Assembly: GCA_002633005.1 (NCBI GenBank)
Contig: NMRA01000097.1
Span: 1 to 64,000, forward strand
DNA length: 64,000 bases
Source of the DNA: Phoronis australis
Lineage: Eukaryota > Animalia > Phoronida
Direction: 5' to 3'
This document shows positions 30,301 to 54,300 of this stretch, one piece after another (positions within the stretch are counted from its first letter, which is position 1; each line of letters starts with the position of its first letter). The notes beneath the pieces are model-generated. The model ran no database searches and was not told where the DNA came from. It saw only the letters and a list, made by a program, of their open reading frames with translations. Position numbers and translations under genes: made by a program.

Positions 30301-33300
30301 GTTGAAAGTAGGACAATATGTACAATTTTTCGAGTTGCAACCTTTTCTTCCTATCTGTATGAGACACCTATCATTTAATTTTCTTCCCCAGATGGTGTCT
30401 TGCAAGGACAAGGTGACAGAGTTACACAAACATTATCAAGAAGTCTCAGAAATAAAACCTCCTCGTGATGTAACGACGGAATTCTTGATTAAGAGCAAGT
30501 TGAGAGATCTGAACTCTGCCTGCAAGGTATGGCGTCTAGACCAAAAATGTGAAATGAAAAATATAAAATAAAAAACGTGAAGAATTGTAAATAATTGAAA
30601 GTCATTGATGAGGTCAAGATTAAATGTGTTTTTGATGATGACGCAATTTAATTATGATGGGTGCAAAGTTCACTGTGCTCATGTGTCAATTAGACGCACA
30701 CGATTGTTGAAATGCTTCTCAATACCTTCCATTTATTGATGTCAGAAAAAGCAAGCTTTCATCCTGTCTGTGCTTCTTGATATTAGCGGGTCCCCTTTTG
30801 TAGTTGAAGTTCACGTGTTCTTGATATTATCCGATACCCTGTTGTACTTGAGGGTCACCTGTTCTGCATCTTTACTAGTTATTTGCGTTTTAACTGGTGA
30901 TCCTTCAGTTCTCTCGCAATTAAAATCCGACTACTTTGCTACAGTAAGAAAAGGTTTGTTATGACTTACTAGTTAGATATTGTTTTAAGGTGACTGTAAA
31001 TCTTATCACAGATGGGAACAAGGCTTCTTGTGAAGTAGAATCTGGCTAATTTTGTTGAGAATTTGACAAAATGAAATTCCACTTTTACGCCATATTTTAA
31101 GCTGAATTTGTGAAGGGTCATCATACTCTTGAATGAGTGGTACCTTTCTTTGTCATTGACTTAGAACTTCAGATTGTTTCCAAGTGCAGCTGAAATCCTG
31201 TCACTACCCATGTTAAACGATTCGCCTGTTGTCATTAGCTAGTTTTAACTTAGGATTCCAATCTCGTGTTGTATTTTCACAGGAGTATGATAAGTTGGCT
31301 GAACAGCAGAAGGAGATTGAGGATAAATTACATGAACTCGAGGCCAACCCACCTAGGTGAGTTTTTGATGTGTTTACATGCACCTTATCAAATTGTTTTT
31401 GGGTATTATTGCAGTACTAGTGGTCTGTCCATGAGGTATGAGGCCAATCTGATGATACTTAGGCAATGAGAAATGTTGTCTTCTTACTGGCTAGTGTGTA
31501 TGCAAATTGCAAAATGTAGTAATGTACCATTGGTTAGCTTGTATGCAAAGTAAATGATACAGTCTTCTTATTAGCTAGTTCGTTTGGAGTTTAGGGGGTG
31601 CAGTTTTCTTATTGGACGGTTTGTATATTAACAAAATATGCAGTAGACTGCAAACAAAAGTCTTGGGCTCTGTTGGTGGCCTATTGTTTGAGAATCAGAC
31701 TTCTTGTCTCATCTTATGTGAGTTCCTTGATGGATATTTAGCTAACAGAGACGATAACATCTCTCCATTTTCGGAGTGACTCCATGTATTCTATGCTACC
31801 TAGTGGACATGTCCATAACTGCTGAGTCTTTGTTTTCAGTACATGTGCCTAAGTCTTTATTCTCCAAATTGCTTAATATGAAATTTGGCAAACGTGTTTG
31901 TACTGAGGAGAGCTCAGCTAGTGATGATTTTTGGATGGGTTCGTTTACTGTGGTGCTTCCAATTGCCATTTTTTGTCTGTGGATCAATTTCCAACAAACT
32001 CCTTATGGGTCTTCATGAAATTTGGTATGTGTTCTTATTGAAGAGAGTGGAGGTGATTTTTTGGATAAGCATGACTATTGTGGAGCCACCTAGTGACACT
32101 ATTGATGGTTTTCTTTATATTTGCCTCAATGTCCTTGGCGGGTGTTCATGAAATTTGTCAAATAAGTTATCATTAAGGAGACGATGGCATTTGCCCCATT
32201 CAGTTGGATTTGACCTATGCTGTGCTTCTTAGTGGTGCTTTTATTGTTTCTATGTCTTTGTTGTCCTTCTCCTTGTCCACCATATTGTGGGAAGAATCGT
32301 GATGGAATGTGACAGTTGTGTTCCTATTTAGGAGAACATGGGTGACTTGGTTTGCCCCCCCGCCACCGAAGGCTATTTTAAGTTTAGTACCATTGCTCTC
32401 TCTGGCGATTATGTTGAAAACTAAAATAATCCCTTGTGCTGTATGCTGTGCACTCTGTGGGCACATATCAACGCATTGCTCTTGTTATTTCAGTTGATTG
32501 TCAAAGAAAAATGTGACAAAATGTAGCAGGAATGTTCTAAAATAAAAAGTCATTCTCCCAGTTAATTGTTACATTGTTCTTAAATCCCGTATAAATGAAT
32601 TTTGAGAAAGGTTAAGACTGCTATCTAATTTCAGTGATGTCTACCTCTCGTCTCGTGACCGTCAGATTCTCGACTGGCACTTTGCCAACTTGGAGTTTGC
32701 CAATGCCACGCCGCTCAGTAATCTGTCACTGAAACACTGGGATCAGGATGATGACTTTGGATTCTCGGGTAGTCACTTAACAGGTCAGTTGAGTATATAC
32801 GTGTGTGTGTGTGTGTGCGTGCATGCTTGTGTGCAAACGGGACTTTTAATCAGGGTACCACGGCTGTCGGGCTGACAAGATTAGGGTCCAGCTTGATAAA
32901 TGAAAGAAGGGTCAGATAGTTAAGGTGTTAGAGGTTCTACCATCTGTTAATAAACAAGCCTGTCGGTTCTTTTTGAGCTCAGAATTTGCATCGTATTTAC
33001 GTAACCGACATCTTGAGACCAATTTGATAACAGTTAAGAGTCTGTATCAGGAGTTGTTTTTGACGCGAGACATGTTTCTGTTAGCTTTACCGTCTTGGTC
33101 ATTTGTGTTAGCTTTACCGTCTTGGTCATTGAAATACTGGTGCTTGGATAAAGCTCTCTTCCCAGAGATTGAGACGACATTAGGCAAAATGAGTGCATTT
33201 ACAAGATGTGTACTACTGTATATACTGTAGTATTATTATATTGTAAAATGTAATAAAACATTCAATGTAAATTTGTATTGATCCCTGTTTAGGTAATACT

Positions 33301-51300: not shown

Positions 51301-54300
51301 TTGTTCCATTAATACCTTTGCATAATAATCATGTAAAGTTACCCATGGGGAAACTAGGTCGCTAGCCCGTCCATATACAGACAGGTAGTAGGCACATCCA
51401 TTGTTCACTTTGTAATACTTTCTTATCATGAGCGGTGCACCATAGGGTCTGGGGGGCTATAGCCCCATTTTTTCTCTGCTGCGCTACCTATGCTTATTAT
51501 AAACATAATTGCAAGCATTTATCAGTAACCAGCTGAGGTGTGCCCAAGGTATGATCTCCACGGGACCTGTATTGTTATATCTAACAAAGACGCAACAAAG
51601 GAAAACAATGGTGGTGTCCCATAGGCGATAACCATGCAATGCTCTTATACCCTTCACATGGATCTCGCAAGTTAGACAATACCTTGCGACATCCAAAAGA
51701 CGTCATTTGGCATAGGTAGTAATGTCAATTCCTGTATTGAAAGTCTACATTACATGCCTTTGTATTCTGGACCTAGTAAACAGGACGCTCACTCATCTGT
51801 AACCTCAGTTGATTGGGTGCCAAGGAGTAGGATGTACTTGGGTCAGAACCAAAGTATAGTTTTCAGATACCACATTGACATGATTACCTAAATATTTGCC
51901 CTTGCTGTGGCTGTAAACATGCCCTGAACTGTTGGTTTTGTAGCCTTATCCAAGGTTAGCACATTTGGTCCCTGAACCTTGTTCTTGTCTCAAGTGTTGG
52001 GCCATCTCTGTTGACATTTCAAGTCAATGAACAGTTTGAGTTTTGATTGACAGGACAAGTATTTACTACATGCAGAACTACGTTGTTTATATAGATATTA
52101 AATCCGTGCTGTTATGTACTGTTTTAAAGGGGTGTGTTACCTCTTTGAAGACCTTTTTGTTCACTAGTTTCGAATGTAAATAATTTCCGAAATTGCCATG
52201 TTTGTTCATTTTGCATGAGCTTCTGAAATTGTAATTGGCCAGTTTCTCCTAATATTGTCTAGTGAAAGCTATAGAACTTGAACATGGAAAAGCATTTAAT
52301 TTGGTGCTAAATGTCTTTAATAGAAAAAAAGAGAAAATAAAATTTCACTTGTATCCTAAATTAGTGAAGGTTTACTGTACTACAGAAGGTATTTTTGAAT
52401 CATTGTACTCAATTTCCATTAAAGTGAAATTAACAAAAAATAACATGCAAACCGTGAATGAAAGGCAGTGGGTGAGCAAGCTGTGATTTTCAGGCCTCTC
52501 CTTGCATAACATTAGTTACTAGTTTGCTTGAATTAAGTTGTCAGAACCATGTAATTAAACTAATGTGGAAGCCAGTCTGCCTGTCAGACATACAAATGTT
52601 TATTTTATCCTTGCAGTCATGCAGAACGATAAAGAATGGAAAATTCAGAACTATTCACTGTTTTGATTTCAGTTCGCAATGGTTACTCTTGTGTACCCGT
52701 GGCCATGTCTGAGGGACTGGACATCAAGTTGAACACGGCGGTCAGACAGATTCGATACGGTCCCTCAGGTAAGTGGAAAAGCAGTTGTAGCCTGTGGGTA
52801 CTCCAATTTTAGCTTCCAAAACATATTCTCACCTGCCTTTGGGTAAAGGGGCACTCGCGCTTACGAGGAATTGACTTGGTGTATGCAACTGTAATAGAAA
52901 TTTTTGAATTAATTTTTTACAGTCAGACGCTGTGCCTTTATGAGAGAAATTTGCCATAGTAAACTTGATTGGAATTGTAAATTATTCACATTCTCCACGT
53001 CCTTTAAAATGTTTGCCTTGTTTAAAATGTTTTTTCACCCCTGATAGTGTAGCTAGCCTGTACTGTTACACTCCTCATCTAAAAGATTTTGTCTCTGATC
53101 GGAATTTTCTTGACATCAGTCAAAACTGCGCAGTTCTGCGCAAACCCTGAGTAATTTTGTAAAACCTAGTCACCACGATAATTCTGTCACCGTTCCTGTT
53201 GATTGGACAAGACTATTGAATTAAAACACTCTAGGGTAAAATGTTTGTCTAGATTTTTAGCTGATTATGTTGACAAAGCTTCTTGAGTTATGTTTGTCTA
53301 ATGTTATTGCCGGAGGTAAGTTTTCAAGGTCATTCATAATTAAAGGTTACACATGGGGCGAGTACCACAACTCTACTGCGTGTTGTAGAGTTATTTCACA
53401 CGTATGCATTGTTTTGAGGGTGTATATTGACTTACATTTTAGGCCACTTCAAGGTCATATTTTTAAGAGATGCCTTGGGAAGATGCATGTTTTCTCGAAG
53501 ACTGCTTATGTAATTTGATATTTTTTCTTAAAAAATAATTCCTTGTAACAGTCTGGTTATTTAAAGAATTGGATTAATGTTCAATTATAGCATTGATAGA
53601 AAAATTGTCACAAATAGTTGGATGGTGAAATTAGTAGTTTTTACGATACTTATGAAATGTACAAATTAACATTTGACAAAAGATGTTTCACTTTATAAGT
53701 GCCCTCCTATATGAAAAAAGTATCAAGAAAAATGTGAAATGGTGGTGTCCTGTGATGCTGGTTTGTTCTTGCAAAACATTTGTTTGTACATAGTGTAGGT
53801 ATTGCGAGTTTCTTGTTGTCAAACCATTGTGATTTGACCTCATATCATGTTGCTATTACCGTGTCACATTTCTGTCTGTTACCCTTGGAACAGTGTATCA
53901 TTAGGTGTGCTATATACTTTGAGTGTATGCAAACATTCAACGCAGTATGATGTTGTGACTTCACAGTGTTTCTACTGTAGACGGCCTGTTTCAAAATATG
54001 TCACGATTCACAAACTTTCTACAAACTTGAGTTTAAGTCTGGTATGACAAAGTGATAAAATTTATGTTTTGAACTAAGTTGTCTAAAATTATGGGCTTCT
54101 GAACAACATCAGAAAGTGCTATGAGGCAAGTGTTGTATTTAGTAAAACAGCTACGTTATACTGTCCTTAAAAAACTTTCTTCTTTTTCGCTCACCTTCAT
54201 CCCTTCCTGATGTGTAGGTAAAAGCGTTTTATTTCTTCCACCTTCCAATCGAACTGGCTCTTTTTCGTTTTAAAAGTTTGAAATCAAGTGGAGCAACTAG

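Follow-up and report, generated by a model that had tools for sequence, protein, structure and literature searches.

Why should two Toll-like receptor (TLR) genes lie within a single intron of a histone demethylase gene, on the opposite strand, and what might keep them there? This question is raised by a 64,000-nucleotide stretch of DNA from the phoronid Phoronis australis, which is the whole stretch that we analyzed and is called the window hereafter. The features of the host gene that matter most for the argument are as follows.

18326..58467, plus strand: LSD1/KDM1A host gene, with 18 coding exons encoding 785 amino acids in an open frame (tblastn exon map)
32635..32783, plus strand: KDM1A coding exon 13, corresponding to human LSD1 residues 518-566; its 3′ end recurs as the upstream loose end in 38 RNA reads
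32784..52672, plus strand: KDM1A intron 13, 19,889 nt, phase 1, GT..AG, containing both TLR genes
52673..52768, plus strand: KDM1A coding exon 14, RNA depth 8-32 on the plus strand only, spliced on both sides

The host is a lophotrochozoan LSD1/KDM1A gene with 18 exons. Its product is 77% identical to the LSD1 proteins of a chiton, an octopus and a nemertean (75-78% across the best ten LSD1 matches), and its exons match human LSD1 structures. Specifically, exon 16 scores 151 bits against human KDM1A chains versus 29 bits against KDM1B, which identifies the gene as KDM1A rather than KDM1B. Exon 6 carries GGGISG, the FAD-binding glycine motif, and the last residue of exon 15 is a lysine directly preceding the residue aligned to human position 662; human K661 is the catalytic lysine of LSD1. 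In the exon model, GT-AG borders are present in 16 of the 17 introns, the exception being intron 2, which has either a GC donor or a misplaced border.

Intron 13 interrupts the amine-oxidase domain at a point corresponding to human residue 566/567 and upstream of Lys661. The last base of exon 13 is 32783 (GSHLT, phase 1), with a donor GT at 32784, whereas the acceptor AG occupies 52671-52672 and coding resumes with VRNGYS from 52673. The first-pass annotation had proposed precisely this junction, and had described the 19.9 kb intron as more than five times longer than any other in the gene. Both statements are borne out: the intron is 5.2 times the length of the next longest (intron 1; 3,806 nt), and the exons are joined in frame by spliced RNA. 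In three raw stranded RNA runs, the upstream loose end of exon 14 reads coincides with the 3′ end of exon 13 in 19/34, 15/36 and 4/12 cases, or 38 of 82 reads in total. These runs (X2 to X4) were chosen by species label and judged solely by their alignment to the window. A masked GT repeat adjoins the edge of the exon 13-14 joint.

Such an arrangement could be produced artificially if a TLR-bearing segment had been mis-joined into the LSD1 intron. The 19.9 kb length is taken from a single assembly, one of the two TLR genes has no RNA reads, and the window outside intron 13 includes N gaps and a 936-nt duplication with 98% identity. Intron 13 itself, however, contains no N, the exon 13-14 junction is perfectly in frame, and a mis-join would not choose the very intron with an excessive length in insects and a Toll neighbor in a millipede (see below). 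An assembly error is thus hardly credible, and we regard it as confirmed that two TLR genes lie antisense within one spliced-out LSD1 intron.

34066..37545, minus strand: TLR-A coding frame, 1159 amino acids from the likely ATG, a multi-cysteine-cluster TLR; transcript not seen
43620..47483, minus strand: TLR-B coding frame, 1287 amino acids from the likely ATG, a multi-cysteine-cluster TLR; transcribed and under purifying selection

Read from stop to stop, the two minus-strand frames span 34066-37572 (1168 codons) and 43620-47552 (1310 codons), and both translations exceed the Pfam cut-off for LRR_8 and TIR. Each has an internal LRRCT/LRRNT that splits the LRR array and a juxtamembrane LRRCT. 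By sequence pattern, LRRCT motifs lie at 627 and 864 in TLR-A and at 655 and 911 in TLR-B, and LRRNT motifs at 38 and 699 and at 64 and 745, respectively. A single transmembrane segment is present in each protein (hydrophobic 19-mer at 970 in TLR-A and at 1043 in TLR-B, stop-to-stop numbering), and a hydrophobic stretch after the likely ATG may form a signal peptide in both. The claim of two uninterrupted antisense TLR reading frames is therefore correct, with LRR, transmembrane and TIR regions found in each. No third TLR fragment is detected elsewhere in the window by tblastn, and a search for Rfam matches returned none.

TLR-A and TLR-B are sisters (support 100) that adjoin Tollo of the brachiopod Lingula (95), their nearest named relative, which is 32% identical to TLR-B and 28% identical to TLR-A. 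More broadly, they group with Lingula and mollusc Tollo-like proteins in a tree from a quick IQ-TREE search that includes neither a beta nor a gamma outgroup. Arthropod and spiralian TLRs separate in such trees, which, lacking an outgroup, do not resolve one-to-one orthology of the nested copies. The two genes arose by local tandem duplication and, because their products are only 37% identical, the local pair must itself be old. TLR-B is under purifying selection: its changed codons comprise 22 synonymous versus 15 non-synonymous differences, where synonymous sites make up 21%.

47508..49908, minus strand: TLR-B 5′-UTR intron, 2,401 nt, GT..AG; joint supported by the X1 contig and by reads of X2 and X3
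49909..50070, minus strand: TLR-B first exon, non-coding, defined by the joint and by minus-strand depth; the upper bound is a depth-bin edge (bin 49404-50070)
37577..40185, minus strand: predicted TLR-A 5′-UTR intron, 2.6 kb, with consensus donor and acceptor; based on sequence and analogy to TLR-B
40432..40442, unstranded: perfect candidate NF-kB-type site, some 250 nt upstream of the first donor predicted for TLR-A

TLR-B is transcribed through its own upstream exon inside LSD1 intron 13. Its minus-strand RNA depth is 2-11 in X2 and X3 and near zero in X4, and the X1 contig extends to 43209. For TLR-A, depth is zero across 34063-37397 in all four RNA runs, and its frame is intact. The description of both TLR genes as intact thus holds for their uninterrupted coding frames, needs the addition of a 5′-UTR intron for TLR-B, and is backed by transcription for TLR-B only. 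The perfect NF-kB-type pattern near TLR-A, which was chosen after the fact, gives one match versus none in 100 shuffles, and a broad NF-kB consensus gives seven matches at four places versus 2.4 expected. Upstream of the two genes, no clear DNA similarity is seen between TLR-A and TLR-B.

In a survey of 80 named species, from which three regex false positives were removed by eye, 19 of the 33 insects and one of the two myriapods have LSD1 gene models that end or start exactly at the exon 13-14 junction. Breaks at this junction are absent from 9 chelicerates, 12 crustaceans, 19 lophotrochozoans and 5 vertebrates (0/45 together). In the millipede Chamberlinius, the N-terminal half of LSD1 (GAB6032502.1) and a TLR (GAB6032504.1, the eighth match of TLR-B) are two accessions apart, and the longest contig is 2,847,328 nt for both. 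Two sister TLRs of the non-arthropod group and a read-through ORF of exon 13 share a contig size of 191,966 nt, and hence appear to be co-located. Equal chromosome lengths likewise suggest that a related TLR is on the LSD1 chromosome in Biomphalaria glabrata and the chiton Liolophura; the sampled TLR in B. glabrata is about 355-380 accessions away from LSD1, and in B. pfeifferi the sampled TLR and LSD1 are on different scaffolds. The nesting is seen as DNA in this window, and is suggested elsewhere only indirectly, by accession order, equal contig sizes and split models.

Other records are negative or uninformative within their scope. The longest contigs of sampled TLRs and of LSD1 differ in Uloborus, Cloeon, Homarus, Amphibalanus and Ornithodoros, such that the two are not co-located. 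In Oncopeltus, the scaffold bearing the 92-kb Lsd1 model, for which completeness is not stated, contains none of six curated Toll genes. Two supplements of the Tribolium gene-set paper (PMC6961396) yield no matches, and the accessible part of the Tribolium immunity paper (PMC2375007) holds no usable gene IDs. A thrips supplement gives Toll positions and lacks LSD1 (PMC7570057), a Gerris supplement contains nothing usable on LSD1/Toll adjacency (PMC6249893), and the available portion of a Nematostella Lsd1 paper (PMC8786827) makes no mention of a TLR. Among 60 metagenome loci, 12 share the position of intron 13 but have only about 57-1,146 nt and no TLR there; most of these are nearest to lophotrochozoan LSD1. 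Such short and empty introns indicate that the nesting can be lost, and many losses would be needed.

Millipede and insect records point, at this very position, to either a Toll gene or an unusually large intron, and on that ground the common ancestor of molluscs, worms and arthropods likely already carried the pairing. The first-pass annotation had named conservation in relatives as the feature that would separate a lasting arrangement from an incidental insertion, and the split LSD1 models and the Chamberlinius adjacency favor conservation. Alternatively, single-coding-exon TLRs might have entered the intron independently, in arthropods on the one hand and in this lophotrochozoan lineage on the other, making the nesting here a lineage-specific accident. 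Nested genes are typically young duplicates inserted into long introns, according to the accessible text of one study (PMC5174743), and in mouse and human, between about a tenth and a sixth of all genes carry another gene within them (bioRxiv 10.1101/2023.05.02.539096). Trochozoan TLRs often duplicate, as the available part of another report describes (PMC8609888), local hops would be likelier if LSD1 and a TLR were already chromosome-mates, and the empty introns at many lophotrochozoan-like loci fit the same scenario. Separate insertions are nevertheless unlikely, since they require the same receptor type to enter the same host, and the same one of its 17 introns, at least two times, and since the divergence of TLR-A from TLR-B marks an old local pair.

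We therefore consider that lophotrochozoans and arthropods probably inherited the nesting from their last common ancestor, and that it was probably kept by entrapment and by TLR regulatory DNA rather than by cross-regulation. One ancestral multi-cysteine-cluster TLR would have entered an already old intron 13 before protostomes diverged. From then on, a rearrangement that fell between the TLR and either neighboring exon would disrupt the essential LSD1 gene, such that the TLR could exit only by being copied out and subsequently deleted; some lineages would have lost it. The TLR promoter, UTR intron and enhancers would inflate the intron, to 20 kb here and in insects perhaps enough to break annotation. 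The two transcription units would most likely be largely independent, with LSD1 serving as a bystander host.

If the genes are independent, then what should be made of an antisense geometry that seems suited to interference? TLR transcription might hinder LSD1 elongation or splicing, or form double-stranded RNA, such that immune signaling lowers the repressor and this coupling preserved the pair. Termination within this intron, which divides the amine-oxidase domain, would yield an inactive enzyme. The pair appears to have been conserved for long, a perfect NF-kB-type candidate site lies upstream of the silent TLR-A, and nested genes in Drosophila are documented to interfere with each other, at least in the accessible text of PMC5174743. 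Against this, LSD1 and TLR-B have the same rank order in all three runs (exon 14 depths of about 22, 29 and 10 versus TLR-B depths of about 4.5, 6.0 and 0.1), so that inverse expression is not seen in these three bulk stranded samples, which have no known immune challenge and make a weak test of it. Plus-strand depth over the TLR-B frame (44068-47402) is zero in 14 of 15 run-by-bin cells, and exon 14 has no antisense reads.

An A-to-I-type excess is also absent from the three runs. Places with A>G and T>C are no commoner than those with C>T and G>A (31/48 versus 44/61 in X2, 37/44 versus 45/70 in X3, and 29/30 versus 30/42 in X4), in counts for which a 90% filter would drop heavily edited reads and in which repeats and SNPs are mixed. 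Moreover, other animals do without the nesting. Functional coupling is thus rather improbable, and the limited RNA evidence gives no support to the earlier proposal that TLR induction dampens LSD1, given that the levels of the two co-vary and plus-strand RNA is nearly absent over TLR-B. The converse proposal, that host transcription holds the TLRs silent, conflicts with the presence of TLR-B RNA while LSD1 is expressed. These runs are three bulk samples with no known immune challenge, and interference confined to particular cells or to induction may yet occur. Decidedly improbable is the fullest version of this idea, whereby an ancestral protostome Toll gene has been kept antisense in LSD1 intron 13 since before the Cambrian radiation by its wiring to the host. 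Here, NF-kB-driven TLR induction (candidate site at 40432) would throttle or truncate LSD1 midway through its catalytic domain and so link immune sensing to histone demethylation. Were coupling to be shown, it would form a direct link from an immune sensor to a chromatin repressor.

Inheritance with entrapment has consequences of its own. Sequence resolves the deep relationships among TLRs poorly, with main-clade support of 61-74% in the portion available of PMC8609888. If the nesting is ancient, LSD1 intron 13 would mark the position of the ancestral protostome Toll gene, and this fixed address would make Toll orthology, duplications and losses testable in any chromosome-level genome. The nesting also explains why many insect annotations split LSD1 into two half genes, and it calls for caution because LSD1 deletions or intron edits in such animals may remove Toll genes as well.

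No description of LSD1/TLR nesting was found among literature titles and abstract openings, and the pair list of PMC3514665 might include it. The closest known systems, described here from the accessible parts of the cited papers, resemble it in different respects. The receptors themselves are like the multi-cysteine-cluster (P-type, clade alpha) Tollo proteins of Lingula and arthropods, with an LRR array split by LRRCT/LRRNT, one transmembrane segment and a TIR domain; genomic nesting is not mentioned for these, and the word 'intron' is absent from both main texts (PMC8609888; PMC10279657). The arrangement is like that of genomic regulatory blocks and microsyntenic pairs, in which a regulated gene and a housekeeping bystander have remained linked for hundreds of millions of years, except that here the whole target gene, not its enhancers alone, is inside the bystander intron (PMC3514665). 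In the insect timeless2/2mit pair, an LRR transmembrane receptor likewise lies antisense in an intron of a chromatin/genome-maintenance gene; no functional link to the host was found, and a putative intronic enhancer was proposed as the constraint (PMC3786989). Unlike TLR-A and TLR-B, 2mit is described as having disordered cytosolic regions and not as a TIR receptor, and its nesting is reported in insects only (PMC3786989).

The nearest parallel is Synapsin/TIMP, a nested pair demonstrated on DNA from sea anemone to human (PMC2825198). As appears to be the case for LSD1/TLR, an unrelated guest gene lies in reverse orientation at a conserved host position across distant phyla, has formed tandem copies within the intron (two in Ciona, ten in sea urchin) and has been lost in some animals, namely nematodes (PMC2825198). 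The genes differ, and the Toll-in-LSD1 nesting is observed on DNA in this window only and deduced elsewhere. By this analogy, the best reading is that LSD1/TLR may be a protostome-ancestral nested pair of the Synapsin/TIMP type that has been locally duplicated and, if ancient, would add one more member to the short list of nested pairs that predate animal phyla.

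LSD1/KDM1A is complete in the window, and its giant intron 13 holds two Toll-like receptor genes, TLR-A and TLR-B, on the opposite strand.

18326-58467, plus strand: LSD1/KDM1A, complete, 18 coding exons, 785 aa
32784-52672, plus strand: LSD1 intron 13, 19,889 nt, phase 1, GT..AG
34066-37545, minus strand: TLR-A, 1159 aa from its likely ATG
43620-47483, minus strand: TLR-B, 1287 aa from its likely ATG

Among named species, LSD1 is closest to lophotrochozoan proteins (chiton, octopus and nemertean, 77-78%), which makes the animal most likely a lophotrochozoan. Intron 13 interrupts the amine-oxidase domain where human LSD1 has residues 566/567 and, as the first-pass annotation had claimed, far exceeds the next-longest LSD1 intron (3,806 nt). 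RNA evidence combined a contig set (X1) with three raw paired runs (X2 through X4) that share its species label, ~18-19% of each raw run being used. Reads on exon 14 extend upstream into the 3′ end of exon 13 (19/34 in X2, 15/36 in X3 and 4/12 in X4) and downstream into exon 15 (15, 23 and 12 reads, respectively). Therefore, the giant intron is spliced out, as had been predicted. These exon 14 reads are single-oriented throughout X2-X4, with no antisense reads among them. Misassembly, which would make the nesting an artifact, is highly improbable: the three runs each join the flanking exons, and the intron contains zero N.

Several other features of the locus were recorded. Repeat-derived stretches within intron 13 (37814-37964, 48137-48740 and 51425-52309) draw reads of both strands; among them are a tandem array with 21-nt units and a short repeat present in inverted copies at 48180 and 51425. 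Retaining the conserved EDPTG gives intron 2 a GC donor (22439) in place of GT; otherwise the exon end is misplaced in the model. Some 16 kb upstream of LSD1, an open frame at 1479-2255 (plus strand) ends in a CARD domain (PF00619, E 2.6e-08) after a Pro/Gln-rich stretch; it is probably the last exon of an apoptosis/immune adaptor gene. TRAPP subunit exons (PF04051; ~61128-62750, minus strand), which we take to be of the BET3/TRAPPC3 type, converge with the LSD1 3′ end. Short coding-like frames at ~10400-17700 (minus strand) form spliced gene(s) divergent from LSD1, and none of the four tested has a Pfam match. A 936-nt direct duplication (10681-11611 and 12007-12941, 97.9% identity, single N at 11612) may reflect two haplotypes joined during assembly, and a degenerate repeat array occupies 3600-6830 (units ~300-400 nt, 70-85% alike).

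Both nested frames are receptors, as had been read from the sequence alone. Specifically, each matches the LRR and TIR Pfam families and carries LRRCT and LRRNT motifs, two of either kind, plus a single transmembrane segment, a layout that is of the multi-cysteine-cluster type by the definition in PMC10279657. The two share 37% identity, and no third TLR fragment was found across the window. TLR-B is transcribed independently: RNA covers it in X2 and X3 in the orientation opposite to LSD1, and its transcript is spliced via a 2,401-nt 5′-UTR intron to an exon whose end is 49909. Among 40 of the 432 differences between RNA and window, 39 fall in the TLR-B frame. These alter 37 codons (22 silent, 15 not) against a background of 21% synonymous sites, which indicates purifying selection on TLR-B. 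Its stop codon (43622) is a sense codon in X1, X2 (6/6) and X3 (1/1), adding five residues, and the runs also segregate for a 3-nt insertion at 43969 that keeps the frame. No RNA set, X1 to X4, gives any depth over TLR-A, which may be silent in these samples or missing from the sampled individuals.

The proposal that TLR expression lowers LSD1, through polymerase collision or dsRNA, is not supported by these runs. LSD1 exon 14 depth (~22, ~29 and ~10 in X2, X3 and X4) and mean TLR-B depth over five bins (~4.5, ~6.0 and ~0.1) share the same rank order rather than an inverse one, in three bulk samples of probably mature RNA with no known challenge and a read filter that may drop conserved reads. 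Over the TLR-B bins, all but one of 15 cells have zero plus-strand depth, and A>G plus T>C places show no excess over C>T plus G>A in X2-X4. These data weaken interference. One lead for coupling, or for TLR immune inducibility, is a candidate NF-kB-type site, a perfect 11-mer at 40432-40442 that is matched in 0/100 shuffles and was picked post hoc in a region where read coverage looks repeat-like. Some 250 nt downstream of this site, a consensus donor predicts, from sequence with zero reads behind it, a 2.6-kb TLR-A 5′-UTR intron resembling that of TLR-B. Functional coupling of the two genes is improbable.

Trees from FastTree (185 sequences) and a quick IQ-TREE run (35 sequences), both midpoint-rooted without outgroups, place TLR-A sister to TLR-B (support 1.0 and 100); thus, the pair is a local tandem duplicate. 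Together they adjoin Lingula Tollo XP_013406435 (0.94 and 95), inside a mostly spiralian group separate in both trees from the arthropod Tollo and Toll-6/7 group. A single ancestral clade-alpha TLR has been proposed (PMC8609888), and the topologies fit descent from it, with the nested copies as possible orthologs.

Among 80 named species, the exon 13/14 junction is exactly where LSD1 models begin or end in 19/33 insects and 1/2 myriapods, and in 0/9 chelicerates, 0/12 crustaceans, 0/19 lophotrochozoans and 0/5 vertebrates. Automated flagging had marked 23 species, from which Oppia, Planococcus and Medioppia were removed as their tails lack a break there. The queries, exons 13 and 15, are biased toward seeing nearby breaks; other break points are nonetheless scattered. 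We infer that the split models reflect the effect of a very long intron on annotation. A 20-kb intron need not split a model, so the zero counts are no evidence of absence. In Chamberlinius, a millipede, two accessions separate the N-half of LSD1 (GAB6032502.1) from a TLR (GAB6032504.1), both listed under the same 2,847,328-nt contig, and four accessions separate the LSD1 halves of Gryllus. An LSD1 exon-13 read-through ORF and two TLRs all come from contigs of 191,966 nt; the two receptors pair as sisters among the non-arthropod sequences, which suggests a second spiralian nesting with its own TLR duplication. LSD1 and a related TLR are on chromosomes of equal size in Liolophura and B. glabrata.

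Other observations argue against universal nesting. In 12 of 60 metagenome LSD1 loci (~9 distinct), the same intron spans only ~57-1,146 nt; their nearest relatives are lophotrochozoan LSD1 or the window in eight cases, ambiguous in two and divergent in two. No TLR match was found in the 60 loci, and in one insect-like locus (L016) exon 14 is not reached over 4.4 kb, as would be expected of a long intron. The sampled TLR is ~355-380 accessions from LSD1 in B. glabrata, on a separate scaffold in B. pfeifferi and on a contig of differing size in five arthropods. The Oncopeltus report gives a curated Lsd1 model of 92 kb, completeness not stated, with 0/6 curated Toll genes on its scaffold (PMC6444547). 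Another metagenome locus (L001:4729-7074) holds a nearly full-length LSD1 free of introns, with Blattella as its closest match (708/810 aligned residues identical), possibly a retrocopy that would offer LSD1 an escape route from the giant intron.

Independent entries of TLR genes into the LSD1 intron are a rival reading, which we consider unlikely. We favor, with some confidence, a single entry of a TLR into an already old LSD1 intron before the lophotrochozoan-arthropod split, followed by entrapment. Rearrangements breaking between the guest TLR and the exons on either side would disable an essential host gene, leaving copy-out plus deletion as the guest's only way out, a route that would have been taken repeatedly. 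Intron length would be maintained by the guest's promoter, UTR intron and enhancers, with LSD1 a bystander.

No report of a TLR-in-LSD1 pair was found in a literature search that reached few subscription papers and stopped short of the PMC3514665 microsynteny list. The window contributes a complete, RNA-confirmed lophotrochozoan case, and would date the pair to the protostome ancestor. Gene nesting is common, with 12-17% of mouse and human genes described as hosts (bioRxiv 10.1101/2023.05.02.539096), and nested genes are described as mostly young (PMC5174743). The nesting reported here is real and would belong to the known class of ancient nested pairs, joining the conserved Synapsin/TIMP pair (PMC2825198) and, within insects, tim2/2mit (PMC3786989).
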